Assembly: GCA_043228905.1 (NCBI GenBank)
Contig: JBHGNT010000012.1
Location: forward strand, 11,594,001-11,658,000
DNA length: 64,000 bases
Reading direction: 5' to 3'
Origin: Azolla caroliniana
Taxonomy: Eukaryota > Plantae > Polypodiophyta
The notes under the pieces were generated by a model. It had not been told where the DNA came from and ran no database searches. It was given only the letters and a program-made list of their open reading frames with translations. This document shows positions 1 to 31,560 of this stretch, piece by piece (position 1 is the stretch's first letter; each line of letters begins with the position of its first letter). Both the position numbers and the translations under genes were made by a program.

Positions 1-3000
1 GAGGAGTACCCGACTTCGAAGAGCCGGATGATACAGACCCAGTATGAACCGGATGAGGAGTACCCGGCTACGGAGAGCCGGATGGTGCAGACCCGGTATG
101 AACCGGATGAGGAGTACCCGGCTTCGGAGAGCCGGATGATAAAGACCCGGTATGAACCGGATCAGGAGTACCCAGCTACGGAGAGCCGGATGGTGCAGAC
201 CCGGTATGAACCGGATGAGTACCCGGCTTCGGAGAGCCGGATGATACAGACCCGGTATGAACCGGATGAGGAGTACCCGGCTACGGAGAGCCGGATGGTG
301 CAGACCCGGTATGAACCGGATGAGGAGTACCTGGCTACGGAGAGCCGGATGGTGCAGACCCGGTATGAACCGGATGAGGAGTACTCGGCTTCGGAGAGCC
401 GGATGATACAGACCCGGTATGAACCGGATGAGGAGTACCCGGCTACGGAGAGCCGGATGGTGCAGACCCGGTATGAACCTAATGAGGAGTACCCGGCTTC
501 GGAGAGCCGGATCCTACAGACCCGGTATGAACCGGATGAGGAGTACCCGGCTTCGGAGAGCCGGATGATACAGACCCGGTATGAACCGGATGAGGAGTAC
601 CCGGCTACGGAGAGCCGGATGGTGCTGACCCGGTATGAACCGGATGAGGAGTACCCGGCTTCGGAGAGCCTGATGATACAGACCCGGTATGAACTGGATG
701 AGGAGTACCCGTCTACGGAGATCCGGGTGATACATACCCGGTATGAACCGGATGAGGAGTACCCGGCTACGGAGAGCCGGATGGTGCAGACCCGGTATGA
801 ACCGGATGAGGAGTACCCGGCTTCGGAGAGCCGGATGATACAGACCCAGTATGAACCGGATGAGGAGTACCCGGCTACGGAGAGCCGGATGGTGCAGACC
901 CGGTATGAACCGGATGAGGAGTACTCGGCTTCGGAGAGCCGGATGATACAGACCCGGTATGAACCGGATGAGGAGTACCCGGCTACGGAGAGCCGGATGG
1001 TGCAGACCCGGTATGAACCTAATGAGGAGTACCCGGCTTCGGAGAGCCGGATCCTACAGACCCGGTATGAACCGGATGAGGAGTACCCGGCTTCGGAGAG
1101 CCGGATGATACAGACCCGGTATGAACCGGATGAGGAGTACCCGGCTACGGAGAGCCGGATGGTGCTGACCCGGTATGAACCGGATGAGGAGTACCCGGCT
1201 TCGGAGAGCCTGATGATACAGACCCGGTATGAACTGGATGAGGAGTACCCGTCTACGGAGATCCGGGTGATACATACCCGGTATGAACCGGATGAGGAGT
1301 ACCCGGCTACGGAGAGCCGGATGGTGCAGACCCGGTATGAACCGGATGAGGAGTACCCGGCTTCGGAGAGCCGGATGATACAGACCCAGTATGAACCGGA
1401 TGAGGAGTACCCGGCTACGGAGAGCCGGATGGTGCAGACCCGGTATGAACCGGATGAGGAGTACCCGGCTTCGGAGAGCCGGATGATACAGACCCGGTAT
1501 GAACCGGATGAAGAGTACCCGTCTACGGAGATCCGGATGATACATACCCGGTATGAACCGGATGAGGAGTACCCGGCTACGGAGAGCCGGATGGTGCAGA
1601 CCCGGTATGAACCGGATGAGGTGTACTCGGCTTCGGAGAGTCGGATGATACAGACCCAGTATGAACCGGATGAGGAGTACCCGGCTACGGAGAGCCGGAT
1701 GGTGCAGACCCGGTATGAACCGGATGAGGAGTACCCGGCTTCGAAGAGCCGGATGATACAGACCCGGTATGAACCGGATGAGGAGTACCCGCGTACGGAG
1801 AGCCGGATGGTGCAGACCCGGTATGAACCGGATGAGGAGTACCCGGCTTCGGAGAGCCGGATGATACAGACCCGGTATGAACCGGATGAGGAGTACCCAG
1901 CTACGGAGAGCCGGATGGTGCAGACCCGGTATGAACCGGATGAGTACCCGGCTTCGGAGAGCCGGATGATACAGACCCGGTATGAACCGGATGAGGAGTA
2001 CCCGGCTACGGAGAGCCGGATGGTGCAAACCCGGTATGAACCAGATGAGGAGTACGCGGCTTCGAAGAGCCGGATGATACAGACCTGGTATGAACCGGAT
2101 GAGGAGTACCCGGCTACGGAGAGCCGGATGGTGAAGACCCGATGTGAACCGGATGAGGAGTACCCGGATTCGGAGAGCCGGATGATACAGACCCGGTATG
2201 AACCGGATGAGGACTACCCGGCAACGGAGAGCCGGATGGTGTAGACCCGGTATGAACCGGATGAGTACCCGGCTTCAGAGAGCCGGAGGATACAGACCCG
2301 GTATGAACCGGATGAGGAGTACCCGGCTACGGAGAGCCGGATGATACATACCCGGTATGAACCGGATGAGGAGTACCCGGCTACGGAGAGCCAGATGGTG
2401 CAGACCCGGTATGAACCGGATGAGGAGTACCCGGCTTCGGAGAGTCGGATGATATAGACCCCGTATGAACCGGATGAGGAGTACCCGGCTACGGAGAGCC
2501 GGATGGTGCAGACCCGGTATGAACCGGATGAGGACTACCCGGCTTCGGAGAGCCGGATGATACAGACCCGGTATCAACCGGATGAAGAGTACCCGTCTAC
2601 GGAGATCCGGATGATACATACCCGGTATGAACCGGATGAGGAGTACCCGGCTACGGAGAGCCGGGTGGTGCAGACCCGGTATGAACCGGATGAGGAGTAC
2701 CCGGCTACGGAGAGCCGGATGGTGCAGACCCGGTATGAACCTAATGAGGAGTACCCGGCTTCGGAGAGCCGGAGGATACAGACCCGGTATGAACCGGATG
2801 AGGAGTACCCGGCTTCGGAGAGCCGGATGATACAGACCCGGTATGAACCGGATGAGGAGTACCCGGCTACGGAGAGCCGCATGGTGCAGACCCCGTATGA
2901 ACCGGATGAGGAGTACCCGGCTTCGAAGAGCCGGATGATACAGACCCGGTATGAACCGGATGAGGAGTACCCGGCTTCGGGGAGCCGGATGGTGCAGACC

Positions 3001-6000
3001 CGGTATGAACCGGATGAGGAGTACCCGGCTACGGAGATCCGGATGGTGCAGACCCGGTATGAACCGGATGAGGAGTACCCGGCTTCGGAGAGTCGGATGA
3101 TACAGACCCAGTATGAAACGGATGAGGAGTACCCGTCTACGGAGAGCCGGATGGTGCAGACCCGGTATGAACCGGATGAGGAGTACCCGGCTTCGAAGAG
3201 CCAGATGATACAGACGCGGTATGAACCGGATGAGGAGTACCCGGCTTCGGAGAGCCGGATGATACAGACCCGGTATGAACCGGATGAGGAGTACCCGGCT
3301 ACGGAGAGCCGGATGGTGCAGACCCGGTATGAACCGGATGAGGAGTACCTGGCTTCGGAAAGCCGGATGGTGCAGACCCGGTATGAACCGGATGAGGAGT
3401 ACCCGGCTACGGAGAGCCGGATGGTGCAGACCCGGTATGAACTGGATGAAGAGTACCCGGCTTCGGAGAGCCGGATGGTGCAGACCCGGTATGAACCGGA
3501 TGAGGAGTACCCGACTACGGAGAGCCGGATGGTGCAGACCCGGTATGAACCGGATGAGGAGTACCCGGCTTCGGAGAGTCGGATGCTACAGACCCGGTAT
3601 GAACCGGATGAGGAGTACCCGGCTACGGAGAGCCGGATGGTGCAAACCCGGTATGAACCGGATGAGGAGTACGCGGCTTCGAAGAGCCAGATGATACAGA
3701 CCTGGTATGAACCGGATGAGGAGTACCCGGCTACGGAGAGCCGGATGGTGCAGACCCGGTATGAACCGGATGAGGAGTACCCAGCTTCGGAGAGTCGGAT
3801 GATACAGACCCAGTATGAACCGGATGAGGAGTACCCGGCTACGGAGAGCCGGATGGTGCAGACCCGATATGAACCGGATGAGGAGTACCCGGCTTCGGAG
3901 AGCCGGATGATACAGACCCGGTATGAACCGGATGAAGAGTACCCGTCTACGGAGATCCGGATGATACATACCCGGTATGAACCGGATGAGGAGTACCCGG
4001 CTACGGAGAGCCGGATGGTGCAGACCCGGTATGAACCGGATGAGGTGTACTCGGCTTCGGAGAGTCGGATGATACAGACCGAGTATGAACCGGATGAGGA
4101 GTACCCGGCTACGGAGAGCCGGATGGTGCAGACCCGGTATGAACCGGATGAGGAGTACCCGACTTCGAAGAGCCGGATGATACAGACCCGGTATGAACCG
4201 GATGAGGAGTACCCGGCTACGGAGAGCCGGATGGTGCAGACCCGGTATGAACCGGATGAGGAGTACCCAGCTACGGAGAGCCGGATGGTGCAGACCCGGT
4301 ATGAACCGGATGAGTACCCGGCTTCGGAGAGCCGGATGATACAGACCCGGTATGAACCGGATGAGGAGTACCCGGCTACGAAGAGCCGGATGGTGCAGAC
4401 CCAGTATGAACCGGATGAGGAGTACCTGGCTACGGAGAGCCGGATGGTGCAGACCCGGTATGAACCGGATGAGGAGTACTCGGCTTCGGAGAGCCGGATG
4501 ATACAGACCCGGTATGAACCGGATGAGGAGTACCCGGCTACGGAGAGCCGGATGGTGCAGACCCGGTATGAACCTAATGAGGAGTACCCGGCTTCGGAGA
4601 GCCAGATCCTACAGACCCGGTATGAACCGGATGAGGAGTACCCGGCTTCGGAGAGCCGGATGATACAGACCCGGTATGAACCGGATGAGGAGTACCCGGC
4701 TACGGAGAGCCGGATGGTGCAGACCCGGTATGAACCGGATGAGGAGTACCCGGCTTCGGAGAGCCTGATGATACAGACCCGGTATGAACTGGATGAGGAG
4801 TACCCGTCTACGGAGATCCGGGTGATACATACCCGGTATGAACCGGATGAGGAGTACCCGGCTACGGAGAGCCGGATGGTGCAGACCCGGTATGAACCGG
4901 ATGAGGAGTACCCGGCTTCGGAGAGTCGGATGATACAGACCCAGTATGAACCGGATGAGGAGTACCCGGCTACGGAGAGCCGGATGGTGCAGACCCGGTA
5001 TGAACCGGATGAGGAGTACCCGGCTTCGGAGAGCCGGATGATACAGACCCGGTATGAACCGGATGAAGAGTACCCGTCTACGGAGATCCGGATGATACAT
5101 ACCCGGTATGAACCGGATGAGGAGTACCCGGCTACGGAGAGCCGGATGGTGCAGACCCGGTATGAACCGGATGAGGTGTACTCGGCTTCGGAGAGTCGGA
5201 TGATACAGACCCAGTATGAACCGGATGAGGAGTACCCGGCTACGGAGAGCCGGATGGTGCAGACCCGGTATGAACCGGATGAGGAGTACCCGGCTTCGAA
5301 GAGCCGGATGATACAGACCCGGTATGAACCGGATGAGGAGTACCCGCGTACGGAGAGCCGGATGGTGCAGACCCGGTATGAACCGGATGAGGAGTACCCG
5401 GCTTCGGAGAGCCGGATGATACAGACCCGGTATGAACCGGATGAGGAGTACCCAGCTACGGGGAGCCGGATGGTGCAGACCCGGTATGAACCGGATGAGT
5501 ACCCGGCTTCGGAGAGCCGGATGATACAGACCCGGTATGAACCGGATGAGGAGTACCCGGCTACGGAGAGCCGGATGGTGCAAACCCGGTATGAACCGGA
5601 TGAGGAGTACGCGGCTTCGAAGAGCCGGATGATACAGACCTGGTATGAACCGGATGAGGAGTACCCGGCTACGGAGAGCCGGATGGTGCAGACCCGATGT
5701 GAACCGGATGAGGAGTACCCGGATTCGGAGAGCCGGATGATACAGACCCGGTATGAACCTAATGAGGAGTACCCGGCTTCGGAGAGCCGGAGGATACAGA
5801 CCCGGTATGAACCGGATGAGGAGTACCCGGCTTCGGAGAGCCGGATGATACAGACCCGGTATGAACCGGATGAGGAGTACCCGGCTACGGAGAGCCGCAT
5901 GGTGCAGACCCCGTATGAACCGGATGAGGAGTACCCGGCTTCGAAGAGCCGGATGATACAGACCCGGTATGAACCGGATGAGGAGTACCCGGCTTCGGGG

Positions 6001-9000
6001 AGCCGGATGGTGCAGACCCGGTATGAACCGGATGAGGAGTACCCGGCTACGGAGATCCGGATGGTGCAGACCCGGTATGAACCGGATGAGGAGTACCCGG
6101 CTTCGGAGAGTCGGATGATACAGACCCAGTATGAAACGGATGAGGAGTACCCGTCTACGGAGAGCCGGATGGTGCAGACCCGGTATGAACCGGATGAGGA
6201 GTACCCGGCTTCGAAGAGCCAGATGATACAGACGCGGTATGAACCGGATGAGGAGTACCCGGCTTCGGAGAGCCGGATGATACAGACCCGGTATGAACCG
6301 GATGAGGAGTACCCGGCTACGGAGAGCCGGATGGTGCAGACCCGGTATGAACCGGATGAGGAGTACCTGGCTTCGGAAAGCCGGATGGTGCAGACCCGGT
6401 ATGAACCGGATGAGGAGTACCCGGCTACGGAGAGCCGGATGGTGCAGACCCGGTATGAACTGGATGAAGAGTACCCGGCTTCGGAGAGCCGGATGGTGCA
6501 GACCCGGTATGAACCGGATGAGGAGTACCCGACTACGGAGAGCCGGATGGTGCAGACCCGGTATGAACCGGATGAGGAGTACCCGGCTTCGGAGAGTCGG
6601 ATGCTACAGACCCGGTATGAACCGGATGAGGAGTACCCGGCTACGGAGAGCCGGATGGTGCAAACCCGGTATGAACCGGATGAGGAGTACGCGGCTTCGA
6701 AGAGCCAGATGATACAGACCTGGTATGAACCGGATGAGGAGTACCCGGCTACGGAGAGCCGGATGGTGCAGACCCGGTATGAACCGGATGAGGAGTACCC
6801 AGCTTCGGAGAGTCGGATGATACAGACCCAGTATGAACCGGATGAGGAGTACCCGGCTACGGAGAGCCGGATGGTGCAGACCCGATATGAACCGGATGAG
6901 GAGTACCCGGCTTCGGAGAGCCGGATGATACAGACCCGGTATGAACCGGATGAAGAGTACCCGTCTACGGAGATCCGGATGATACATACCCGGTATGAAC
7001 CGGATGAGGAGTACCCGGCTACGGAGAGCCGGATGGTGCAGACCCGGTATGAACCGGATGAGGTGTACTCGGCTTCGGAGAGTCGGATGATACAGACCGA
7101 GTATGAACCGGATGAGGAGTACCCGGCTACGGAGAGCCGGATGGTGCAGACCCGGTATGAACCGGATGAGGAGTACCCGACTTCGAAGAGCCGGATGATA
7201 CAGACCCGGTATGAACCGGATGAGGAGTACCCGGCTACGGAGAGCCGGATGGTGCAGACCCGGTATGAACCGGATGAGGAGTACCCAGCTACGGAGAGCC
7301 GGATGGTGCAGACCCGGTATGAACCGGATGAGTACCCGGCTTCGGAGAGCCGGATGATACAGACCCGGTATGAACCGGATGAGGAGTACCCGGCTACGAA
7401 GAGCCGGATGGTGCAGACCCAGTATGAACCGGATGAGGAGTACCTGGCTACGGAGAGCCGGATGGTGCAGACCCGGTATGAACCGGATGAGGAGTACTCG
7501 GCTTCGGAGAGCCGGATGATACAGACCCGGTATGAACCGGATGAGGAGTACCCGGCTATGGAGAGCCGGATGGTGCAGACCCGGTATGAACCTAATGAGG
7601 AGTACCCGGCTTCGGAGAGCCAGATCCTACAGACCCGGTATGAACCGGATGAGGAGTACCCGGCTTCGGAGAGCCGGATGATACAGACCCGGTATGAACC
7701 GGATGAGGAGTACCCGGCTACGGAGAGCCGGATGGTGCAGACCCGGTATGAACCGGATGAGGAGTACCCGGCTTCGGAGAGCCTGATGATACAGACCCGG
7801 TATGAACTGGATGAGGAGTACCCGTCTACGGAGATCCGGGTGATACATACCCGGTATGAACCGGATGAGGAGTACCCGGCTACGGAGAGCCGGATGGTGC
7901 AGACCCGGTATGAACCGGATGAGGAGTACCCGGCTTCGGAGAGTCGGATGATACAGACCCAGTATGAACCGGATGAGGAGTACCCGGCTACGGAGAGCCG
8001 GATGGTGCAGACCCGGTATGAACCGGATGAGGAGTACCCGGCTTCGGAGAGCCGGATGATACAGACCCGGTATGAACCGGATGAAGAGTACCCGTCTACG
8101 GAGATCCGGATGATACATACCCGGTATGAACCGGATGAGGAGTACCCGGCTACGGAGAGCCGGATGGTGCAGACCCGGTATGAACCGGATGAGGTGTACT
8201 CGGCTTCGGAGAGTCGGATGATACAGACCCAGTATGAACCGGATGAGGAGTACCCGGCTACGGAGAGCCGGATGGTGCAGACCCGGTATGAACCGGATGA
8301 GGAGTACCCGGCTTCGAAGAGCCGGATGATACAGACCCGGTATGAACCGGATGAGGAGTACCCGCGTACGGAGAGCCGGATGGTGCAGACCCGGTATGAA
8401 CCGGATGAGGAGTACCCGGCTTCGGAGAGCCGGATGATACAGACCCGGTATGAACCGGATGAGGAGTACCCAGCTACGGGGAGCCGGATGGTGCAGACCC
8501 GGTATGAACCGGATGAGTACCCGGCTTCGGAGAGCCGGATGATACAGACCCGGTATGAACCGGATGAGGAGTACCCGGCTACGGAGAGCCGGATGGTGCA
8601 AACCCGGTATGAACCGGATGAGGAGTACGCGGCTTCGAAGAGCCGGATGATACAGACCTGGTATGAACCGGATGAGGAGTACCCGGCTACGGAGAGCCGG
8701 ATGGTGCAGACCCGATGTGAACCGGATGAGGAGTACCCGGATTCGGAGAGCCGGATGATACAGACCCGGTATGAACCGGATGAGGAGTACCCGGCAACGG
8801 AGAGCCGGATGGTGCAGACCCGGTATGAACCGGATGAGTACCCGGCTTCGGAGAGCCGGAGGATACAGACCCGGTATGAACCGGATGAGGAGTACCCGGC
8901 TACGGAGAGCCGGATGATACATACCCGGTATGAACCGGATGAGGAGTACCCGGCTACGGAGAGCCAGATGGTGCAGACCCGGTATGAACCGGATGAGGAG

Positions 9001-10342
9001 TACCCGGCTTCGGAGAGTCGGATGATATAGACCCCGTATGAACCGGATGAGGAGTACCCGGCTACGGAGAGCCGGATGGTGCAGACCCGGTATGAACCGG
9101 ATGAGACTACCCGGCTTCGGAGAGCCGGATGATACAGACCCGGTATGAACCGGATGAAGAGTACCCGTCTACGGAGATCCGGATGATACATACCCGGTAT
9201 GAACCGGATGAGGAGTACCCGGCTACGGAGAGCCGGGTGGTGCAGACCCGGTATGAACCGGATGAGGAGTACCCGGCTACGGAGAGCCGGATGGTGCAGA
9301 CCGGGTATGAACCTAATGAGGAGTACCCGGCTTCGGAGAGCCGGAGGATACAGACCCGGTATGAACCGGATGAGGAGTACCCGGCTTCGGAGAGCCGGAT
9401 GATACAGACCCGGTATGAACCGGATGAGGAGTACCCGGCTACGGAGAGCCGGATGGTGCAGACCCCGTATGAACCGGATGAGGAGTACCCGGCTTCGAAG
9501 AGCCGGATGATACAGACCCGGTATGAACCGGATGAGGAGTACCCGGCTTCGGAGAGCCGGATGGTGCAGACCCGGTATGAACCGGATGAGGAGTACCCGG
9601 CTACGGAGATCCGGATGGTGCAGACCCGGTATGAACCGGATGAGGAGTACCCGGCTTCGGAGAGTCGGATGATACAGACCCAGTATGAAACGGATGAGGA
9701 GTACCCGGCTACGGAGAGCCGGATGGTGCAGACCCGGTATGAACCGGATGAGGAGTACCCGGCTTCGAAGAGCCAGATGATACAGACGCGGTATGAACCG
9801 GATGAGGAGTACCCGGCTACGGAGAGCGGGATGGTGCAGACCCGGTATGAACCGGATGAGGAGTACCCGGCTTCGGAGAGCCGGATGATACAGACCCGGT
9901 ATGAACTGGATGAGGAGTACCCAACTACGGAGAGCCGGATGCTGCAGACCCGGTATGAACCGGATGAGGAGTACCCGGCTTCGAAGAGCCGGATGATACA
10001 GACGCGGTATGAACCGGATGAGGAGTACCCGGCTACGGAGAGCCGGATGGTGCAGACCCGGTATGAACCGGATGAGGAGTACCCGGCTTCGGAGAGCCGG
10101 ATGATACAGACCCGGTATGAACCGGATGAGGAGTACCCGGCTTCGGAGAGCCGGATGATACAGACCCGGTATGAACCGGATGAGGAGTACCCGGCTACGG
10201 AGAGCCGGATGGTGCAGACCCGGTATGAACCGGATGAGGATTACCCGGCTTCGGAGAGCCGGATGATACAGACCCGGTATGAACCGGATGAGGAGTACCC
10301 GGCTACGGAGAGCCGGATGGTGCAGACCTGGTATGAACCGGA
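1..10342. repeat. 54-bp tandem satellite, left arm (about 190 monomers; continues beyond the window start)
   Basis: Consensus CAGACCCGGTATGAACCGGATGAGGAGTACCCGGCT(A/T)CGGAGAGCCGGATG(GTG/ATA); 4 CCGG per monomer; two alternating monomer types; occasional 51-bp variants missing one GAG. Confidence 0.98.
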
Positions 10343-10475
10343 TGTCAGGAACTCTATTAAGGCAGAGAAGGAATTAGTACTAAAAGAAGGATTAGTACTA
10401 TTGTTGGGGAATAGTACTAAGACAGAGAAGGATTAGTACTATGAGAGGTGTCGAACTTTGAGAGAAGGAATGAGT

Positions 10476-10517
<42 letters not shown>

Positions 10518-10807
10518 TGATGCGAAAGATATATGTATTATATGACGGAAGATATACAACAGTAGTTAGAAGGCTTAAGACTGGCGTTGAACCGATTTGG
10601 TTCGAACTAATGCCCTGTGCCTCCTTTTATAGTGTCTTCAGGAATACTCCTGAAGTTTCTAGAATGTTCCAGAGAAATCTGGAATATACATCAATTTCCT
10701 AATAAAACCTAAATGAAAATAATATCCTTCAAATTACAACTCATAACCTAATGGTAAAGTCTCGACCCGTGTAACAAAAGGTTATGGGTTCGAGTCTAGT
10801 TATGACA
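10343..10807 (-). repeat. 3' LTR of the chromovirus (465 bp)
   Basis: TGTCAGG...TATGACA; by eye identical to 15607-16061 except 5 extra AG units in the microsatellite. Confidence 0.96.
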
Positions 10808-13800
10808 CTATCCCCCCTTTAAAACGACGAGTTTCACGAGTCGTTTTGGATTGAGGACCCGGTTTCTCGGGATATCGTCGATGGAAGTCTTCTAGAAGAG
10901 CACGAGCATTGGTCACATTCTCGATCGGTTCCCAAGTACGCTCGCTGGGACTATATCCTAGCCAATCGACTAGATAGTAGAGCTTGTTGCGAACAATCTT
11001 GGAATCGAGGATGGCAGCGACCTCATACTCAGGTCCATCTTCGAGCTCGATAGGAGGTGGAGGTTGTATAGTACGTCCTGGGATAGTGCTCTCGTGATAG
11101 GGTTCGAGGAGAGAACTATGAAACACCGGGTGTATCCGAAGTTGCGGAGGTAGCTCGAGACGAAAAGCGACATCATTAATCTTCCCGATAATACGGAAAG
11201 GACCTAATCGTCGATAATCCAACTTCTCACATGGGCGAGTAGTCTTGATGTGTCGTCGTAGCAGCCACACCCGATCTCCAATGTTAAAACTGGATGGAAG
11301 TCGATGACGATCTGCGTAGTCCTTGTGTGATTGTTGAGCTTGCTGGAGTTGAGTAGATAAATCCGCTTGTATCTTGCGTAACCGCTCCAAACGATCCTCC
11401 GCGTAAGGATTTGTGGACACTTCTGGGGTTTCAAGGACACACCACCGGGGATGATATCCCGTATAAGCGTAGAATGGCGTGACTTTAGTCGATGCGTGGA
11501 TAGCGTTATTATAGGCAAATTCGGCGAACGGAAGAATATCTGCCCAGTCATTCTGATGATAGTTGAGAAAGCACCGCAGATACTGCTCCAGTGTTTGATT
11601 TGTTCGTTCGGCTTGACCGTCGGTTTGTGGGTGGTAGCCGGAGGAGAGGTTACAAGTGACCTTCAGCATTTTAAAAAGGTGCTTCCAGAATTTTGACACA
11701 AACTGGGGTCCACGATCGCTGATGATATTATCAGGGAGTCCATGATGCCGACATACTTCCCGCATGACAATTTCGGCGGTGTCTTCACTAGATATTTCTT
11801 TAGTACATGGTAAGAAATGAGCCATCTTCGTATATCGATCCACGACTGTGAGAATCGCACTGAATCCCTTAGAGACTGGAAGATCTGTAATGAAGTCAAG
11901 AGCAATGGATTGCCATGGCTTGCTTGGAATTGGTAATGGTTCTAATAAACCATATGGATGATGTCTTGGCATTTTCGCTCTGCAGCATGTATCGCAAGTC
12001 CGAACAAAATCTTCGACAAATTGTCGCATACGGGGCCACCAGAATGATCGTTGTACTAAATCTAATGTTTTAGTACTACCAAAATGTCCTGCTGTATATG
12101 TGTCATGGCAGTTTTGTACTACTCGAAGGCGGCAAGAACCATTAGGAACATACAAAAGTTCTTTAAAGAAGAGTAATCCATCACAGTATTTGAATTGCCG
12201 ATAATCCGTACCTGGTGATTGTGATTGTGAACATGACGCTCGAGAGGGGTCAATTTGTGCTAGTATAGCTTGGGCGAAAGCGTCAGTCTTCAAGTCCTCA
12301 CGTATAGTATTGGTAATGTCGGAATCCACGGGCATGTCAAAGATCTGTGCTGCTTGCAGTCGTGCTGGACCCAAGATTACTTGCTTCTGGTTATCGAAAG
12401 CTGGCTCACCGGGACGTGGTGTTAGAGACGAACGCCGTGATAATGCATCTGCCTTCCCTTGGTGCTTCCCCGGACGATATGTAATTTTGAAGTCGAAGCG
12501 TGTGAGGAAATGGGCCCACCGAGCTTGACGTCGATTCAGTACACGAGCATCTTGAAAGTAGGCAAGGTTCTTGTGGTCACTGAATACAGTGACCTGATGA
12601 GGAGATCCCTCCAGGAAATGCCTCCATTGCATAAAAGAATCAACTATTGCTAATAGCTCTTTATCATGAATTTCGTAGTTGATTTCGGCGGCGTCAAACT
12701 TACGGGAGTGGAAAGCCACAGGATGTAGCTTCTCGTCGTTACCCTGTTGTGACAGAATGCTCCCCAATGCGAAATCCGATGCATCAGCTTCGATAATGAA
12801 TGGTTTTTCCAGATCCACATGACCTAAAATTGGAGCTGATGTAAACGCCTTCTTAAGACTCTCGAAAGCCATGTCCGTCTCTTTAGACCAAATGAATGAT
12901 TGTCCCTTCCTGGTGAGCTGTGTGAGAGGCAGCACAATTTTTGAGTAATTTTGTATGAACTTCCGGTAGAAATTTGCAAAGCCTAGGAAGCATTGCACAT
13001 CCCGCACCGAACGCGGAGTGTGCCATTCTATCACCGTTTTGACCTTGGCTGGGTCCATAGATATGCCTTCTGAGGAGATGACATAGCCGAGAAACTCCAC
13101 TTGGTTGCACCCGAAACTACATTTCTCTAACTTTGCATACAGACCATGTTCTCGAAGTCGTTTTAGTACTAATAGTACATGAGAATCATGTTCTTCTTGG
13201 GTCTTTGAATAAACCAGTAGATCATCCAAATAGATGATCAAAAAATCATCCAAGAGGTCTCGAAATATATCATTCGCCATGTGCTGGAAGACTGCCGGCG
13301 CATTAGTGAGTCCGAACGGCATGACCGTATACTCGAAGTGCCCATATCTGGTGCGAAACGCGGTCTTCCATTCATCTCCTGGTCGGATCCGTACGAGGTT
13401 ATAGGCTCCTCGTAAGTCGATCTTCGTGAAGAACCTGGCACCGTTGATCCGTTCTAAAAGACTTGAGATAAGGGGAAGAGCATACCTATTTCTTACTGTG
13501 ACCTTATTCAAGCCACGGTAATCTACAACGAGTCGAAGCGAGCCATCTTTTTTCTTGACGAAGAAAATGGGTGCGCCGGCTGGAGATTTCGAATGCCGAA
13601 TGAAACCGTTCTCCAAATTCTCCTCTATATAGGCTCGAAGGACTTCTAGCTCGGTTGGTGACAAATTGTAGATCGGCCCCCATGGCGGCTCTTTTCCCGG
13701 TTGTAAGTCGATGGCGCAGTCGTACGGCCGATGATGAGGAAGTGTGTTGGCTTGTACTTTATCGAACACATCAGCATACTGACGATACTTCTCGGGAAGT

Positions 13801-14396
13801 TGAACGGTGGACTCCTCTTTGGTGGTGCTGGAGGGTTGTACTGATATTGCAAAGAGAAACATTTCCTCCTTGCGCCCTTCCTCACGCAACTGACGTAGCG
13901 AAATGGTTGCAACCTTCTGGGTAGATCCTTGGGTTTGTCGCAACCGGATTTCCCTTGTCCTCCAATCTATGTCTGGGTCATGTAACTCGAACCATGGTAA
14001 TCCTAAAACTATGGGATGTTCTGGAATACTAATAATATTAAATGATACTACACATGTTAAGTTATCTAGGACAATATTAACGGGTTCCGACTCTTCTATG
14101 ATATTACCAGAAGCAATGGGACGACCATCAATGACTACTACTGAGGCTGGACATGGGAGCTTTCTTAGAGATATCTGATGAGCTCGGGCAAAATTCCTAT
14201 CCATGAAGCAAGAATTAGCTCCGGAATCTAGAAGGGCTAAGGTATGTACTGGAGGGGTTCTTTTAGTACTAACTGCTACTTGGACTACGAACACATCACT
14301 AACTTGCTTAGAGGGAATGGAACCACTAATGGGCTGCACAGATCTAGGGCTGTCCAACCAAACGGCTCCTATTTTGGCTGGACTTAGTCGTTTAAC
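10800..14396 (-). CDS. pol: Pol polyprotein (aspartic protease, RT, RNase H, integrase, chromodomain), probably made as a Gag-Pol fusion by -1 frameshift
   Basis: LLDSGA protease; YLDD RT; EADASDF RNase H; HHCC zinc finger and DDE integrase (SDRGPQF, DGQAER); GPF motif; chromodomain YEVAAILD..YYLVDWLGY...TWEP. The ORF-track start at 14357 is TTG, and the frame stays open upstream across the gag stop. Confidence 0.95.
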   Translation of the reverse strand, partial: VKRLSPAKIGAVWLDSPRSVQPISGSIPSKQVSDVFVVQVAVSTKRTPPVHTLALLDSGANSCFMDRNFARAHQISLRKLPCPASVVVIDGRPIASGNIIEESEPVNIVLDNLTCVVSFNIISIPEHPIVLGLPWFELHDPDIDWRTREIRLRQTQGSTQKVATISLRQLREEGRKEEMFLFAISVQPSSTTKEESTVQLPEKYRQYADVFDKVQANTLPHHRPYDCAIDLQPGKEPPWGPIYNLSPTELEVLRAYIEENLENGFIRHSKSPAGAPIFFVKKKDGSLRLVVDYRGLNKVTVRNRYALPLISSLLERINGARFFTKIDLRGAYNLVRIRPGDEWKTAFRTRYGHFEYTVMPFGLTNAPAVFQHMANDIFRDLLDDFLIIYLDDLLVYSKTQEEHDSHVLLVLKRLREHGLYAKLEKCSFGCNQVEFLGYVISSEGISMDPAKVKTVIEWHTPRSVRDVQCFLGFANFYRKFIQNYSKIVLPLTQLTRKGQSFIWSKETDMAFESLKKAFTSAPILGHVDLEKPFIIEADASDFALGSILSQQGNDEKLHPVAFHSRKFDAAEINYEIHDKELLAIVDSFMQWRHFLEGSPHQVTVFSDHKNLAYFQDARVLNRRQARWAHFLTRFDFKITYRPGKHQGKADALSRRSSLTPRPGEPAFDNQKQVILGPARLQAAQIFDMPVDSDITNTIREDLKTDAFAQAILAQIDPSRASCSQSQSPGTDYRQFKYCDGLLFFKELLYVPNGSCRLRVVQNCHDTYTAGHFGSTKTLDLVQRSFWWPRMRQFVEDFVRTCDTCCRAKMPRHHPYGLLEPLPIPSKPWQSIALDFITDLPVSKGFSAILTVVDRYTKMAHFLPCTKEISSEDTAEIVMREVCRHHGLPDNIISDRGPQFVSKFWKHLFKMLKVTCNLSSGYHPQTDGQAERTNQTLEQYLRCFLNYHQNDWADILPFAEFAYNNAIHASTKVTPFYAYTGYHPRWCVLETPEVSTNPYAEDRLERLRKIQADLSTQLQQAQQSHKDYADRHRLPSSFNIGDRVWLLRRHIKTTRPCEKLDYRRLGPFRIIGKINDVAFRLELPPQLRIHPVFHSSLLEPYHESTIPGRTIQPPPPIELEDGPEYEVAAILDSKIVRNKLYYLVDWLGYSPSERTWEPIENVTNARALLEDFHRRYPEKPGPQSKTTRETRRFKGGIVS
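10808..10820 (-). other. Polypurine tract (PPT)
   Basis: Minus strand AAAGGGGGGATAG immediately before the 3' LTR. Confidence 0.9.
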
Positions 14397-15553
14397 TCTT
14401 CTTCTAATTGGCTAAGGACATCAAATTTGTTTGCGAGATTCGGACTATTAGTACTATTAGGACTATTATGACTATGAGGATTATCAGAGATTCCTACTGA
14501 CATAGACTCGGGTTTAGTATAGTCAGAACTAACAATGACTTGGTTTACCTGCCTTCTTGGTCTATGGGGACAGTTTATCGCGATATGCCCTGGTCCACCG
14601 CAATAAAGGCATAATCGGTTTGTTCGGCGTCGTTGCTTTTCCTCCTCCGATAGCGGCCCACGACGACGTGTAGTGTCAATTTCCATTGGAGTTGGAGTAC
14701 TTACTGGAGGCGCATTATGTGACTCCCTTTGAAAAGGTTTCGCTACCATTGAGGCATAGGTAGGCTCGGATCTTGCCCTCGGCATCTGAAATTGTCGTTC
14801 CGAACGTCGCTCGAAGAGGCGGTTGTCACATCTGACCGCTCGACTGATTGCTTCTGTTAATGATTTTGGCTCTTCAGGGAAAGTCAAGAGTAAATCCTTG
14901 ACATCGTTGCGTAGACCATAGCGGAACTGCTCCATCAATGCTTGATCATCCCAGGGGATATCGGCGGCGAGTAGGCGGAAATCTGCAGCATATGCGGAGG
15001 CTGGACGGTCACCTTGGCGTAATCGCCGGATTTTGTTGATTGCAGTCCTTATGCTGTCAGTATCTCCAAAACATGCTTTAAACTCACTTATGAATTCTTC
15101 AAAATTATTTAGTACTGGAGATTCCTTTTCTAGTAGCGGTGCGAACCATGCTAATGCTGAGCCAGTTAACAACGTGCCTACTAAACCCACTCGTGATGCA
15201 TCGGTGGGATATCGGGACGGATGCATTTGAATAACTAACCGTACCTGGTTAAGAAACCCTCTAAACTGCGATCGCGTTCCATCGAACTTCGTGGGAAGGC
15301 CAATCTTGGGTTCTTTATGAATCCCTTGTGCTCCGTGCCCTTGTTGTTGCATTGCTACGATGGTTGCTTCGAGTTGTTGTACGCGTAACGCAAGTTCCCC
15401 ATGCTGTTGTTGCGTTTGCTGCTTTTCTAAGGAAATTTGCTGAAGATCCCCCAACAAGCGTTGATTTTCTTGTTCCAAAGCATGAAACTTCTCTTTCAAG
15501 CATTGAAATTCCGAAAAAACGGATTGATACTCTTCAGCGCTAACGGTGGCCAT
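14384..15553 (-). CDS. gag: Gag (coiled coil, retrotransposon capsid, CCHC zinc knuckle), PEG10/sushi-like, 389 aa
   Basis: PTKFDG, LRQG...YAADF, PTPMEID and [14 protein letters not shown] motifs. Confidence 0.95.
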   Translation of the reverse strand: MATVSAEEYQSVFSEFQCLKEKFHALEQENQRLLGDLQQISLEKQQTQQQHGELALRVQQLEATIVAMQQQGHGAQGIHKEPKIGLPTKFDGTRSQFRGFLNQVRLVIQMHPSRYPTDASRVGLVGTLLTGSALAWFAPLLEKESPVLNNFEEFISEFKACFGDTDSIRTAINKIRRLRQGDRPASAYAADFRLLAADIPWDDQALMEQFRYGLRNDVKDLLLTFPEEPKSLTEAISRAVRCDNRLFERRSERQFQMPRARSEPTYASMVAKPFQRESHNAPPVSTPTPMEIDTTRRRGPLSEEEKQRRRTNRLCLYCGGPGHIAINCPHRPRRQVNQVIVSSDYTKPESMSVGISDNPHSHNSPNSTNSPNLANKFDVLSQLEEELND

Positions 15554-15591
15554 GGGATGAAGGAAAAGGGAAATAAGAGACTAGTAGGAGG

Positions 15592-15604
15592 CAAATCGGT
15601 TCAA
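15592..15604 (-). other. Self-priming primer-binding site (not tRNA-complementary)
   Basis: Minus strand TTGAACCGATTTG, 2 nt after the LTR, is the exact complement of LTR 15841-15853; no TGG tRNA-type PBS is present. Confidence 0.85.
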
Positions 15605-15889
15605 ACTGTCAGGAACTCTATTAAGGCAGAGAAGGAATTAGTACTAAAAGAAGGATTAGTACTATTGTTGGGGAATAGTACTAAGACAGAGAAGGATTAG
15701 TACTATGAGAGGTGTCGAACTTTGAGAGAAGGAATGAGTGAGTGAGAGAGAGAGAGAGAGAGAGAGAGTGATGATGCGAAAGATATATGTATTATATGAC
15801 GGAAGATATACAACAGTAGTTAGAAGGCTTAAGACTGGCGTTGAACCGATTTGGTTCGAACTAATGCCCTGTGCCTCCTTTTATAGTGT

Positions 15890-15929
15890 CTTCAGGAATA
15901 CTCCTGAAGTTTCTAGAATGTTCCAGAGA
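15890..15929. promoter_or_regulatory. Heat-shock-element-like array just upstream of the LTR TATA box (second copy at 10636-10675)
   Basis: cTTCa gGAAt aCTCc tGAAg tTTCt aGAAt gTTCc aGAGa: alternating nGAAn/nTTCn pentamers, 6 of 8 perfect. Confidence 0.65.
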
Positions 15930-15997
15930 AATCTGGAATATACATCAATTTCCTAATAAAACCTAAATGAAAATAATATCCTTCAAATTACAACTCA

Positions 15998-16051
15998 TAA
16001 CCTAATGGTAAAGTCTCGACCCGTGTAACAAAAGGTTATGGGTTCGAGTCT
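15998..16051 (+). promoter_or_regulatory. tRNA-like Pol III A-box/B-box pair at the outer U3 end of the LTR, antisense to the element (second copy at 10744-10797)
   Basis: TAACCTAATGG(TAAAG) and GGTTCGAGTCT, starts 43 nt apart as in tRNA genes. Confidence 0.55.
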
Positions 16052-16061
16052 AGTTATGACA

Positions 16062-19000
16062 CCGGATGAGGAGTACCCGGCTTTGGAGAGCCGGATGATA
16101 CAGACCCGGTATGAACCGGATGAGGAGTACCCGGCTCCGGAGAGCCGGATGATACAGACCCGGTATGAACCGGATGAGGAGTACCCGGCTTCGGAGAGCC
16201 GGATGGTGCAGACCCGGTATGAACTGGATGAGGAGTACCTGGCTACGGAGAGCCGGATGGTGCAGACCCGGTATGAACCGGATGAGGAGTACCCGGCTTC
16301 GGAGAGCCGGATGGTGCAGACCCGGTATGAACCGGATGAGGAGTACCCGGCTACGGAGAGCCGGATGGTGCAGACCCGGTATGAACCGGATGAGGAGTAC
16401 CCCGCTACGGAGAGCCAGATGATACAGACCCGGTATGAACCGGATGAGGAGTACCCGGCTTCGGAGAGACGGATGGTGCAAACCAGGAGTACCCGGCTAC
16501 GGAGATCCGGATGATACATACCCGGTATGAACCGGATGAGGAGTACCCGGCTACGGAGAGCCGGATGGTGCAGACCCAGTATGAACCGGATGAGGAGTAC
16601 CCGGCTACGGAGAGCCGGATGATACAGACCCGGTATGAACCGGATGAAGAGTACCCGTCTACGGAGATCCGGATGATACATACCCGGTATGAACCGGATG
16701 AGGAGTACCCGGCTACGGAGAGCCGGATGGTGCAGACCCGGTATTTTAACCGGATGAGGTGTACTCGGCTTCGGGGAGTCGGATGATACAGACCCAGTAT
16801 GAACCGGATGAGGAGTACCCGGCTACGGAGAGCCGGATCGTGCAGACCCGATATGTGAACCGGATGAGGAGTACCCGGCTTCGAAGAGCCGGATGATAAA
16901 GACCCGGTATGAACCAGATGAGGAGTACCCGGCTACGGAGAGCCGGATGGTGCAGACCCGGTATGAACCGGATGAGGAGTACCCGGCTTCGGAGAGCCGG
17001 ATGATACAGACTCGGTATGAACCGGATGAGGAGTACCCAGCTATGGAGAGCCGGATGGTGCAGACCCGGTATGAACCGGATGAGTACCCGGCTTCGGAGA
17101 GCCGGATGATACAGACCCGGTATGAACCGGATGAGGAGTACCCGGCTACGAAGAGCCGGATGGTGCAGACCCAGTATGAACCGGATGAGGAGTACCTGGC
17201 TACGGAGAGCCGGATGATGCAGACCCGGTATGTGAACCGGATGAGCAGTACTCGGCTTCGGAGAGGCGGATGATACAGACCCGGTATGAACCGGATGAGG
17301 AGTACCCGGCTACGGAGAGCCGGATGGTGCAGACCCGGTATGAACCTAATGAGGAGTACCCGGCTTCGAAGAGCCGGATGATACAAACCCGGTATGAACC
17401 GGATAAGGAGTACCCGGCTTCGGAGAGCCGGATGATACAGACCCGATATGAACCGGATGAGGAGTACCCGGCTACGGAGAGCCAGATGGTGCAGACCCGG
17501 TATGAACCGGATGAGGAGTACCCGGCTTCGAAGAGCCGGATGATACAGACGCGGTATGAACCGGATGAGGAGTACCCGTCTACGGAGAGCCGGATGGTGC
17601 AGACCCGGTATGAACCGGATGAGGAGTACCCGGCTTCGGAGAGCCGGATGATACACAGACCCGGTATGAACCGGATGAGGAGTACCCGGCTTCGGGGAGC
17701 CGGATGATACAGACCCGGTATGTGAACCGGATGAGGAGTACCCGGCTACGGAGAGCCGGATGGTGCAGACCCGGTATGAACCGGATGAGGAGTACCCGGC
17801 TTCGGAGAGCCGGATGATACAGACCCGGTATGAACCGGATGAGGAGTACCCGGCTACGGAGAGCCGGATGGTGCAGACCCGGTATGAACTGGATGAAGAG
17901 TACCTGTCTTCGGAGAGCCGGATGGTGCAGACCCGGTATGAACCGGATGAGGAGTACCCGGCTACGGAGAGCCGGATGGTGCAGACCCGGTATGAACCGG
18001 ATGAGGAGTACCCGGCTTCGGAGAGCCGGATGGTGCAGACCCGGTATGAACCGGATGAGGAGTACGCGGCTTCGAAGAGCCGGATGATACAGACCCGGTA
18101 TGAACCGGATGAGGAGTACCCGGCTACGGAGAGCCGGATGGTGCAGACCCGGTATGAACCGGAAGAGGAGTACCCGGATTCGGAGAGCCGGATGATACAG
18201 ACCCGGTATGAACCGGATGAGGAGTACCCGGCAACGGAGAGCCGGATGGTGAAGACCCGGTATGAACCGGATGAGGAGTACCCGGCTACGGAGAGCCGGA
18301 TGGTGCAGACCCGGTATGAACCGGATGAGGAGTACCCGGCTTCGGAGAGCCGGATGATACAGACCCGGTATGAACCGGATGAAGAATACCCGTCTACGGA
18401 GATCCGGATGATACATTCCCGGTACGAACCGGATGAGGAGTACCCGGCAACGGAGAGCCGGATGGTGCAGACCCGGTATGAACCGGAAGAGGAGTACCCG
18501 GCTACGGAGAGCCGGATGGTGCAGACCCGGTATGAACCGGATGAGGAGTACCCGGCTTCGGAGAGCCGGATGATACAGACCCGGTATGAACCGGATGAAG
18601 AGTACCCGTCTACGGAGATCCGGATGATACATTCCCGGTATGAACCGGATGAGGAGTACCCGGCTACGGAGAGCCGGATGGTGCAGACCCGGTATGAACC
18701 GGATGAGGTGTACTCGGCTTCGGAGAGTCGGATGATACAGACGCAGTATGAACCGGATGAGGAGTACCCGGCTACGGAGAGCCGGATGGTGCAGACCCGG
18801 TATGAACCGGATGAGGAGTACCCGGCTTCGGAGAGCCGGATGATACAGACCCGGTATGAACCGGATGAGGAGTACCCGGCTACGGAGAGCCGGATGGTGC
18901 AGACCCGGTATGAACCGGATGAGGAGTACCCGGCTTCGGAGAGCCGGATGATACAGACCCGGTATGAACCGGATGAGGAGTACCCAGCTATGGAGAGCCG

Positions 19001-20273
19001 GTTGGTGCAGACCCGGTATGAACCGGACGAGTACCCGGCTTCGGAGAGCCGGATGATACAGACCCGGTATGAACCGGATGAGGAGTACCCGGCTACGAAG
19101 AGCCGGATGGTGCAGACCTAGTATGAACCGGATGAGGAGTACCTGGCTACGGAGAGCCGGATGGTGCAGACCCGGTATGAACCGGATGAGGAGTACTCGG
19201 CTTCGGAGAGGCGGATGATACAGACCCGGTATGAACCGGATGAGGAGTACCCGGCTACGGAGAGCCGGATGGTGCAGACCCGGTATGAACCTAATGAGGA
19301 GTACCCGGCTTCGAAGAGCCGGATGATACAAACCCGGTATGAACCGGATGAGGAGTACCCGGCTTCGGAGAGCCGGATGATACAGACCCGGTATGAACCG
19401 GATGAGGAGTACCCGGCTACGGAGAGCCGGATGGTGCAGACCCGGTATGAACCGGATGAGGAGTACCCGGCTTCGAAGAGCCGGATGATACAGACGCGGT
19501 ATGAACCGGATGAGGAGTACCCGGCTACGGAGAGCCGGATGGTGCAGACCCGGTATGAACCGGATGAGGAGTACCCGGATTCGGAGAGCCGGATGATACA
19601 GACCCGGTATGAACCGGATGAGGAGTACCCGGCTACGGAGAGCCGGATGGTGCAGACCCGGTATGAACTGGATGAAGAGTACCCGGCTTCGGAGAGCCGG
19701 ATGGTGCAGACCCGGTATGAACGGGATGAGGAGTACCCGGCTACGGAGAGTCGGATGCTACAGACCCGGTATGAACCGGATGAGGAGTACCCGGCTTCGG
19801 AGAGCCGGATGGTGCAGACCCGGTATGAACCGGATGAGGAGTACCCGGCTTCGGAGAGTCGGATGATACAGACCCGGTATGAACCGGATGAGGAGTACGC
19901 GGCTTCGAAGAGCCGGATGATACAGACCTGGTATGAACCGGATGAGGAGTACCCGGCTAGGAAGAGCCGGATGGTGCAGACCCAGTATGAACCGAATGAG
20001 GAGTACCTGGCTACGGAGAGCCGGATGGTGCAGACCCGGTATGAACCGGATGAGGAGTACTCGGCTTCGGAGAGCCGGATGATACAGACCCGGTATGAAC
20101 CGGATGTGGAGTACCCGGCTACGGAGAGCCGGATGGTGCAGACCCGGTATGAACCGAATGAGGAGTACCCGGCTTCGAAGAGCCGGATGATACAGACCCG
20201 GTATGAACCGGATGAGGAGTACCCGGCTACGGAGAGCCGGATGGTGTAGACCCGGTATGAATCGGATGAAGAG
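16062..20273. repeat. 54-bp tandem satellite, right arm (about 78 monomers)
   Basis: Same monomer, resuming in register after the TSD; ends at ...ATCGGATGAAGAG|ACATATT. Confidence 0.98.
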
Positions 20274-29280: not shown

Positions 29281-31050
29281 TTACACACACACACACACCA
29301 ACAGTGTGTTCATGGAACCATCGGAAGCACCGCTAATAATTCCACCTTCATTCAACACAGCTTTTAGGTAATGAATGGCTTCTCGACTGATCTTCTCACC
29401 TGGCACAAGAACAGGGATACCTGGAGGGTAGGGGCATATAAGTTCACAGCAAACTCTCCCACATGCAAGTTCTGTGTCCACCCTCTCACTGGGAGAAAAG
29501 AAAGCATCCCTAGGACTCCATCTTTCTTCTGATAATGACCATGATTCGAATGTGGGGAGGCATACAGGAACTTTACTTTGGGATTCCCCTGAGTTGGACT
29601 TGGCGATGGAAACAAATGCTTCGATAAGCCTAGTAATGTCTTGAGATATTGTGCCTAGGCTTATTGCGAAGGTGATGGAGCGGAGTGACGGGAGCTCAGC
29701 GACTACATGATGCTCAAGACGAAGCTTCTCATCGACTTCAAATCCTGATAGCCCTAAACCCCAGACACCCACAGTTATTCGGAGAGGATCCACTGCAACT
29801 GCATCATCAAAACTTATATTCCTTATGTCTAAAACCTTTAGCCCTTTGATCTGACTCAGTCCATCTCTTACCTCTTTCGCATATTGCAAAGCCCTTGAAA
29901 ACCCAGCCCTACCATGCATGCTTGCTTGTTGCCTCGAGGCATCCAATGAAGTGAGAAGAAGATAGCTTGGGCTTGAACTCTGCAATGTTTGCAAGCATTT
30001 GGCCAAGAAATCCCTGTTCACCCTATCCCCTTGCACATGAAGCATAGCCGATTGAGTGAGGGAGGTGAGAACCTTGTGTGTAGACTGAACAACAACATCC
30101 GCACCTTGCTGTATGGCAGATTCTGGGAGGTTATCATGGAAGCAGAAATGGGCTCCGTGAGCTTCATCTACGATAAGAGGCACATTGTAACTATGGCAAA
30201 TCTCAGCTATCCTCCGCACATCACTACACACACCATAGTATGTGGGCGAAGTTATAAGGACAGCACCAACCTTAGTCTTAAGTTTACCCCCAGTGAGGTT
30301 TGCAAAAGCTTGTGATAAATCATGGGGTCTGATACCATGTGCAATATCCCAATGGGGATCATAAGAAGGCATTATATATGCTGGTTGCGTGCCAGAGAGG
30401 ATCATGCCCGAAATCGCGCACATATGAGAGTTTCTTGGGAGGATTAGGGTTTGACCAAGGGAGCATGTGGCCATGATCGCAGCTTGAATACCACACGTGG
30501 ATCCATTGACGAGGAAGAAGGATGATTCAGAACCAAAGAGACATGCAGCCATTTGTTGAGCGTTGGCGATGGCAGCTTGGGGGTTGAAGAGATTATCTAG
30601 TTCAGGAAGTTCGGGGAGATCGTGAGCGAACACAGGATGGCCAAGTAAGTGAGAGAGCGAATCCGGAGCTCCAGTGCCACGCCGGTGGCCTGGGAAGTGA
30701 AAGGATGCAAGTCCCTCTTGCGATGCACAAGCAAATAAGGCTTCCACTAGAGGTGCACCTGATGTTATGCAACTGCTCAATCTCTCATTACTTACTTCTT
30801 CTGGACTTGCTGATTCTGATTCTGATTCTGATTCTGATTCTGATTCTGATTCCTCATGGACATGGCGGATGTGGCAAGATGCCGCACAGACAATGAGAAT
30901 GGGCGGCTTCTGCTTCCAAGGTAGTAGTATGGCATGCGAAGGCCGCCATCGGAGTGGGAGTGGGAGAGGAAGTGGTCGGGGGAACAGAGTAGGAAGAGGA
31001 ACAGCAGCAGCATACTCCATCGGAACGAAGGAAGGGAAGGAAGAAGGCAT
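29281..31050 (-). CDS. PLP-dependent Orn/Lys/Arg decarboxylase (fold type I), 589 aa, probable plastid transit peptide, apparently intronless
   Basis: FHFPGH, DLPELPELDNL, FLVNGSTCG, PRNSH, ITSPTYYG, VDEAHGAH, QSTHK (PLP lysine), SSSPSY, DPLRIT, PYPPGIP motifs. Start most likely ATG 31050 or 31020; the longer ORF-track N-terminus is low-complexity. Confidence 0.92.
   Translation of the reverse strand: MPSSFPSFVPMEYAAAVPLPTLFPRPLPLPLPLRWRPSHAILLPWKQKPPILIVCAASCHIRHVHEESESESESESESESASPEEVSNERLSSCITSGAPLVEALFACASQEGLASFHFPGHRRGTGAPDSLSHLLGHPVFAHDLPELPELDNLFNPQAAIANAQQMAACLFGSESSFFLVNGSTCGIQAAIMATCSLGQTLILPRNSHMCAISGMILSGTQPAYIMPSYDPHWDIAHGIRPHDLSQAFANLTGGKLKTKVGAVLITSPTYYGVCSDVRRIAEICHSYNVPLIVDEAHGAHFCFHDNLPESAIQQGADVVVQSTHKVLTSLTQSAMLHVQGDRVNRDFLAKCLQTLQSSSPSYLLLTSLDASRQQASMHGRAGFSRALQYAKEVRDGLSQIKGLKVLDIRNISFDDAVAVDPLRITVGVWGLGLSGFEVDEKLRLEHHVVAELPSLRSITFAISLGTISQDITRLIEAFVSIAKSNSGESQSKVPVCLPTFESWSLSEERWSPRDAFFSPSERVDTELACGRVCCELICPYPPGIPVLVPGEKISREAIHYLKAVLNEGGIISGASDGSMNTLLVCVCV
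30811..30852 (-). repeat. (GAATCA)7 coding microsatellite giving an (ES)7 linker
   Basis: TGATTC x7 on the plus strand. Confidence 0.95.
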
Positions 31051-31204
31051 GAGCTTTTCTTGATCACACATAGATACGTATATGTACATACATGTATTGT
31101 ATGAATAGACATTTAAATACATACATAATGTATGTAAATATGTGGTGCACTCAAAGATTTCCAACCGGAAACCACTCCCACCAAAGGGAGAGAGGACGGA
31201 CCCT

Positions 31205-31560
31205 AGGAGCCCCAATCCAAATTGGGAGAAGCACAAGGAAGCATAATCAAAGTTGGGACAAGGCCAGGGTGTCCCAACTTGAGTTCAAGTTGGGACAATC
31301 TCAAAAGTGTTTAGGGGCCAAGACCCCCAATTGAAATTGGGAGAAGCACAAGGAGGCATAATCAAAGTTAGGACAAGGCCACACAATCCCAAACTTGAGT
31401 TGGGATAGTCTCAAAAGGGTTTCGGGTTTATGGTTCCAACCCTAAACCCCTGTGCTCAGTCCCAATCCAAGTTGGAACCCAAGAAAAGAACTAGTGCCAA
31501 TCACAGTGCCAGTCTCAAAAGGGGCACCACCCTTGAGTTGGGACAACTCGGTCCCAACAG
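31205..31560. repeat. Cluster of GTTGGGAC/GTCCCAA motifs with a ~115-bp-period duplication, upstream of the decarboxylase
   Basis: AAATTGGGAGAAGCACAAGGA.GCATAATCAAAGTT.GGACAAGGCC occurs twice; the motif is repeated in both orientations. Confidence 0.6.

Follow-up and report, generated by a model that had tools for sequence, protein, structure and literature searches.

Outward-facing tRNA-type promoter boxes at the U3 edge of autonomous chromovirus LTRs as a candidate TFIIIC site

The 64,000-nucleotide stretch of Azolla caroliniana DNA analysed in this study (contig JBHGNT010000012.1, positions 11,594,001 to 11,658,000; hereafter, the window) carries an intact Ty3/gypsy chromovirus of 5.7 kb on its minus strand (10343-16061), with open gag (14384-15580) and pol (10800-14411) frames, the latter specifying protease, RT, RNase H, integrase, SH3 domain and chromodomain. 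The element lies entirely within a 54-bp satellite (16062-20273, also 1-10342) and has a CCGGA target-site duplication at both ends. The satellite is rich in CCGG, comprises about 270 copies of ∼90% identity with a 15-bp sub-period, and possibly represents centromeric or other heterochromatin. Between the 5' LTR (15607-16061, minus strand) and the 3' LTR (10343-10807, minus strand) there are no substitutions, and because 10 nt of a GA tract constitute their sole difference, the copy is considered young. The polypurine tract (PPT) is found at 10808-10820 and the primer binding site (PBS) at 15592-15606, both on the minus strand; over 10800-10820, the pol frame runs across the PPT to a stop codon inside the 3' LTR's att end, as it does in many relatives. 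The element is predicted to prime itself: a self-primer of 13 nt (15841-15853, minus strand), placed ∼30 nt behind the predicted TATA box of the Pol II promoter (15879-15885, minus strand), is complementary to the PBS directly after the 5' LTR, and 20 related loci have the same layout with complements of 9-12 nt. Four repeats of the form GAAnnTTC/TTCnnGAA (15891-15923), which we take to be HSE-like units, accompany the promoter. Self-priming in place of a tRNA-matched PBS, the gypsy domain order with C-terminal chromodomain and the aromatic cage (Y, W, Y at the expected places, with positions presumed equivalent to those of HP1) together suggest a probable Tcn1-type element.

At the U3 start of the 5' LTR, on the plus strand and hence antisense to the element, an A box (15998-16008, one mismatch to TRGYNNARYGG) is followed at a start-to-start distance of 43 nt by a B box (16041-16051). 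Ahead of the B box, 16033-16037 (plus strand) corresponds to tRNA positions 44-48, which form the most conserved unscored block across 23 families. An identical unit in the 3' LTR (10744-10797, plus strand; A box from 10744, B box from 10787) faces the PPT and the end of pol. A third unit (45220-45274, minus strand; A box 45274-45264, again with one mismatch, and B box 45230-45220, 44 nt apart) belongs to the LTR of a second family. The antisense pairs that an initial annotation had pointed out in the two LTR types are therefore both real features of the sequence, as is the common order of boxes, AT-rich spacer, HSE-like repeats, TATA box and self-primer that it had read in both. Its statement that the boxes have the same position holds for their location at the start of U3; the distance from the end of the B box to the LTR end differs (10 nt versus 33 nt). 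Exactly three A+B pairs exist on both strands of the window (at most one mismatch per box, spacing 38-62), compared to a mean of 0.11 and a maximum of 2 in 100 shuffles of the sequence outside most of the satellite, and the scan of both strands detected none in the window's copia LTR pairs. No tRNA was called at the window LTRs by ARAGORN or Rfam, and ARAGORN located no tRNA gene in the whole window.

The second LTR (45187-45733, plus strand, with the PBS following at 45734) is understood as a rearranged 5' LTR, carrying an internal inverted duplication of 124 nt and, behind it, a mere scrap of internal sequence. Its identity as chromovirus LTR of a second family, kin of the loci L045, L028 and L016, follows from the relatives, which place the 45187 sequence right after chromodomain and PPT (L045 and L028: directly adjoining, 86-88% identity over 284-292 nt). 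The A/B unit is present at the corresponding LTR position in L045, L028, L016 and L008-L013 and across the clade. A possibility raised by the initial annotation, that 45220-45274 is an independent SINE insertion, would have the unit absent from sister LTRs and is rejected on this evidence. The inverted duplication (45458-45747) has its first base precisely where the self-primer starts, and U5 and R follow in reverse complement. Primer linked to minus-strand strong-stop DNA should have just this sequence, and judged from this arrangement the duplication may be the fossil of a self-priming intermediate. Transcription across it would yield a 124-bp hairpin RNA; miRNA-like Rfam matches at 45513-45700 are below the gathering scores and reflect the inverted duplication. 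Elsewhere in the window, a further chromovirus gag-pol fragment (51510-52173) is 67% like the intact element and has the opposite orientation, and an intronless Orn/Lys/Arg decarboxylase frame (29281-31284) lies amid retroelements, its best named matches being Adiantum and Ceratopteris (61-63%) as compared to 50-57% for other plants, so that this one gene points to a fern as the likely host.

Relatives were gathered by alignment of the integrase C-terminus and chromodomain, the region just before the 3' LTR, resulting in 78 loci; the metagenome source consisted of the best 80 of 487 confirmed stretches. A search of viral contigs gave no relative. A search of genome contigs gave two stray loci, L077 and L078, which were used as outgroup; both are chromovirus sequences deposited under a bacterial MAG (Dysgonomonas) and most likely represent eukaryotic contamination. 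Four loci in which no U3 start was called (L023, L042, L049, L060) and five with less than 100 nt (L007, L022, L059, L070, L071) were left out, so that 69 loci together with the two window LTR types provided 71 U3 starts of at least 100 nt, which formed 35 clusters, or families, at 75% identity. The U3 start of L073 was set by hand; that of L052 is doubtful, and a scan of the whole L052 locus gave no match. In both L052 (5280-5800) and L060 (3000-3500), the purine tract is not followed by a normal LTR start, and extra coding-like sequence seemingly lies 3' of pol.

Scored against a consensus fixed beforehand, 24 of the 35 families carry an antisense A+B pair with at most four mismatches over both boxes, and 18 of 35 still do so at a stricter cut-off of at most two. 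The sense strand, used as control, showed at least five mismatches in all 35 families, and shuffled sequences (30 per family) gave means of 5.9-6.7. Orientation is antisense in every carrier (24/24), and the A-to-B distance from start to start is tRNA-like throughout, 44 nt in 17 families, 43 in 6 and 45 in one (L073, omitted from the 23-row alignment used below). Unlike this fixed spacing, the stretch separating the B box from the LTR end is variable in the 24 carriers (11-64 nt). For comparison, the commonest gap between the boxes in yeast is given as 32 bp (PMC11724288). A matrix trained on the LTR boxes and scanned over 830,034 bases produced 68 matches, 54 of them at called U3 starts; of the other 14, three are the copies in the window, two are real tRNA genes in L040 and nine fall within loci, mostly at further LTR starts. 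The locus L020 contains a full tRNA-Asp copy (128-201) with damaged B box that abuts GC-rich LTR-like sequence; instead of a gene, this copy may represent a primer that was reverse-transcribed.

The pair is missing from 11 of the 35 families. In a Pol tree of 35 rows (a quick tree, supported by SH-aLRT only), the carriers fall into two supported clades: a larger one of 23 rows, 21 of them carriers and the other two (L029, L038) damaged-looking, and a smaller one of five rows, with three carriers besides L047 and L058. The remaining seven rows, outside both clades, are without pair. Because families such as L047/L048 and L058 lack the pair within a carrier clade, yet retain normal LTR ends and self-primers, the unit must be dispensable. 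Monophyly of the carriers was rejected (p-AU 0.018, on a quick tree and for a group chosen once a tree had been inspected). The cause is L052, which groups with the larger clade, hence either the unit was lost in L052 or it had two origins. Self-primers and PBSs co-vary between families (e.g., L009, L015, L047, L050, L058, L074); they are 9-12 nt long and nearly all end in CAA, box-less families included. The initial annotation had tied the boxes to a stress-inducible promoter. Where the sequence suffices, arrays of at least two HSE units are indeed present in 9 of 18 carriers, as compared to 0 of 11 non-carriers, so this part applies to about half of the carriers; such arrays are not general, and the association with the boxes is not significant (3/5 independent pairs, p 0.25).

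Alignment of 23 family representatives, numbered as a tRNA, reveals where the sequence is kept. The A box has an information content of 0.99 bits, the B box one of 1.44 and positions 44-48 one of 1.68, compared to 0.22-0.33 bits upstream, between the boxes and downstream. The A box is held mainly at T8 (21/23), A14 (22/23), G18 (20/23) and G19 (22/23), with G10 in just 6/23. The B box conforms to GTTCRANYC, with G53, T55, C56, A58 and the purine at 57 present in all 23 families and C62 kept in 8/23; G46 and T47 are likewise fixed (23/23). Between the clades (60 pairs at 53% amino acid identity), the B core is 0.92, positions 44-48 are 0.82 and the A box is 0.66 identical, whereas the spacer (0.29) and four-fold codon sites (0.30) are saturated and the upstream sequence has a value of 0.32. 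This agrees with the earlier claim that the boxes are kept while the intervening sequence and the tRNA stems are not, and it disposes of the counter-proposal that they are conserved no better than neighbouring U3. Changes per site amount to 0.7 in the B core versus 8.6 in the spacer. Among 88 windows of five columns, positions 44-48 have the fewest changes; their conservation is not circular because they formed no part of the score. C56 is unchanged in 23/23 families and G57-to-A, the tolerated CpG product, occurs in six, a weak contrast built on few events; by locus, CpG decay gave 19 CA versus 4 TG of 56, the loci not being independent. Within families, the five variant sites in the A box all keep or improve the consensus. 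Among the variant sites listed none falls at 16033-16051, but none falls at 15930-15962 either, so that end effects may account for the gap at the B box; in a second set, none of the 40 rows listed (73 more belong to it) lies in the B box. Positions 63-74, downstream of the B box, lack conservation. A reading of positions 44-48 as W-box in the sense direction (TGACC, which we take to be that motif) was rejected, position 49 being A in 14/23 and position 48 C in 17/23 while G46 and T47 are fixed. For yeast TFIIIC, a base contact at G47 and effects of changes at 44-47 on binding or transcription have been described (PMC11724288). On comparative sequence grounds, the A/B unit is a selected tRNA-type promoter signature that faces outward in autonomous elements having their own Pol II promoter.

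To judge from the alignment, the unit probably acts as a DNA site and not as an RNA gene. Covariation is absent from the D, anticodon and T stems (p 0.50, 0.23 and 0.56 by column shuffles of the 23 rows), and pairing in the acceptor stem is slightly above shuffle (p 0.021). RNAalifold returned no consensus structure on either strand, with two families folding well singly (z -5.2 and -4.1). The covariance search that the initial annotation had proposed thus ended without an Rfam tRNA match and without supported stems, and a tRNA gene or tRNA mimic is rejected from the lack of ARAGORN or Rfam match, covariation and shared fold. No T-run position is conserved among the carrier families, and a run of four or more T occurs between A box and LTR end in 7/23 of them, so the suggestion of a functional outward RNA is weakened.

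We propose that the conserved antisense unit at the U3 edge is a DNA site for host TFIIIC and a portable barrier or anchor for the element's promoter, a proposal whose chances we hold to be even. Binding of TFIIIC to the A and B boxes appears quite probable. TFIIIC would then load TFIIIB on the spacer that separates the A box from the Pol II promoter and has an AT content of 76-87%; an AT-rich upstream region is also found at plant tRNA genes (PMC11700998). In the 5' LTR, the complex would sit between flanking chromatin and the TATA box. As the weakest step of the proposal, it might there act as barrier, or as nucleosome-free anchor, such that the promoter stays usable in heterochromatin, for example in the satellite of the window. 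Outward Pol III RNA, if made, would be incidental, and the unit would likely go back to the ancient capture of either a tRNA gene or the head of a tRNA-SINE. The barrier role is suggested by analogy to yeast, in which tRNA genes and ETC sites are TFIIIC-dependent barriers (PMC12409998); the cited cases of tDNA barrier activity come from yeast and mammals, none of them from plants. The intact copy residing in a satellite array and carrying a chromodomain is consistent with the proposal. Because a pure barrier would not need an A box kept in fixed orientation, the data also suggest that transcription may matter.

The latter consideration leads to the explanation that survives best beside TFIIIC-dependent barrier function, namely an active Pol III promoter whose transcription is the point, be it through outward RNA from the 5' LTR, a short RNA from the 3' LTR antisense to the PPT and the end of pol, or interference damping the element's own Pol II promoter. 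Adjacent tRNA genes repress Pol II promoters in yeast. The retention of A box, orientation and spacing in 24/24 carriers and the AT-rich region upstream of the boxes are as expected of such a promoter, and the 3' LTR unit of the window would give an RNA of ∼105 nt, with the T4 at 10844 as its terminus. Transcript ends would otherwise be haphazard: the first T4 past the 3' LTR is found at 9 to 530 nt or is absent from the sequence at hand, T4 or longer runs interrupt the unit itself in the 7/23 families noted above, and in the 45187 copy a T5 run (45258) follows just after the A box. From the 5' LTR, the first TTTT past the boxes is at 16744, exactly as the initial annotation had put it. Taken together with the lack of a shared fold and with a CAA near the start in 5/23 families versus 3/23 in a control stretch, these features render the explanation rather unlikely.

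Improbable, in our assessment, is a role at the RNA level, in which the unit, within the genomic RNA, is where a host tRNA anneals by its D and T arms, comparable to the U3 half of the bipartite PBS in Ty3, and aids dimerisation or strand transfer. The sense RNA of the element is complementary to D- and T-loop sequence of tRNA, many variable positions change by transitions, and in Ty3 the T and D arms of the tRNA are described to pair with U3 (PMC5371799). However, the elements self-prime, and pairing between RNAs would be expected to permit G:U, yet none of 115 cells at G18, G19, G45, G46 and G53 has changed from G to A and none of 69 cells at T47, T54 and T55 from T to C (0/184 over the eight core positions). 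The positions that do vary freely (12, 50, 59) fall where the consensus for protein readout is free or unconstrained.

We accord a comparably low probability to a TFIIIC site in the service of integration, either as landing pad for retrotransposons that target Pol III genes, as Ty3 and Tj1 are reported to do, or as tether for a host factor on the cDNA end. Among 66 box-bearing copies, a small sample on short contigs, homology breaks off upstream of the A box in 15 places, at scattered distances, and no nested element was seen starting at a shared position; the window copy itself is inserted in satellite, in a window without tRNA gene. A functionless relic of old tRNA or SINE capture, as loss of the unit in several families might suggest, is very improbable and largely refuted by the between-clade conservation, considering boxes 0.66-0.92 identical where four-fold sites and spacer are saturated at 0.29-0.30, the changes per site (0.7 in the B core versus 8.6 in the spacer) and the invariance of C56 beside six G57-to-A changes.

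There exist clear likenesses between the unit conserved here and Pol III-type sequences in other LTRs, and equally clear distinctions. Helenus (TRIMp3) has tRNA-derived A and B boxes in both LTRs, but is described as non-autonomous, 311-1263 bp long and tRNA-primed, as opposed to the autonomous, self-priming element of 5.7 kb that keeps a Pol II TATA promoter (Kojima 2024, PMC10886601). In Helenus-1_SMo, the tRNA-like part is in sense with a T-run behind it (as read by eye) and is thought to transcribe the element, whereas the boxes in the chromoviruses face outward (PMC10886601). Cassandra and Ajax TRIMs likewise feature a small-RNA-derived Pol III promoter in both LTRs; theirs is of 5S type, in a non-autonomous element, and transcribes the element itself, as shown for Cassandra (PMC10886601). 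The same paper mentions other LTRs with tRNA-like parts, confines its analysis to TRIMs and considers it unlikely that autonomous partners share such Pol III-promoter LTR sequence (PMC10886601). Elements of the Tcn1 clade/Tf1-Sushi type resemble the one studied here in gag and pol with chromodomain, TG...CA LTRs of ∼450 bp, 5-bp target-site duplication, self-priming, predicted by Neumann et al. for the majority of Tcn1 elements (PMC6317226), and a non-seed plant host; the accessible descriptions note TATA and CAAT boxes, with Pol III boxes unmentioned (PMC2864245, PMC6317226). With tDNA and ETC barriers, the unit shares the A and B boxes, an extension upstream of the B box and the possibility of action without RNA product (PMC12409998, PMC11724288); it differs in that the predicted site rides on a mobile element and is present in every LTR. 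The B-box extension of yeast ETC sites, as far as described, is downstream, where positions 63-74 are unconserved in the LTRs. The likeness to the bipartite PBS of Ty3 lies in U3 complementarity to the T and D arms (PMC5371799); Ty3 is tRNA-primed, in contrast to self-priming elements with substitutions unlike those of G:U-tolerant pairing. The initial annotation knew of no such description for Tcn1-type LTRs, and our literature search agrees: among listings and starts of abstracts, with few subscription papers or Repbase reports covered, it returned no account of Pol III boxes in autonomous chromovirus LTRs. Text searches in the available versions gave no Pol III boxes within PMC2864245 and no match for 'polymerase III' or 'B box' within PMC3601003. 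Antisense Pol III-type boxes in autonomous chromovirus LTRs are thus apparently undescribed in this form.

Lastly, the study has importance in that Pol III promoters in LTRs were earlier known from short non-autonomous elements. Silent chromatin is the presumed insertion target of chromoviruses with canonical chromodomain. For how such insertions get transcribed, the conserved TFIIIC-type site, located as it is between flank and Pol II promoter, presents a concrete, mutable candidate. If active, the high-copy LTRs would supply TFIIIC sites in large number and allow tDNA-type barriers to be examined in plants. We offer the tentative suggestion, held at somewhat less than even confidence, that a lineage of autonomous, heterochromatin-seeking chromoviruses has long carried an outward TFIIIC/TFIIIB site and used it as a portable anti-silencing barrier, on a time scale sufficient to saturate synonymous sites (four-fold identity 0.30). 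Should the barrier interpretation be true, thousands of mobile tDNA-type insulators would exist in a plant genome.
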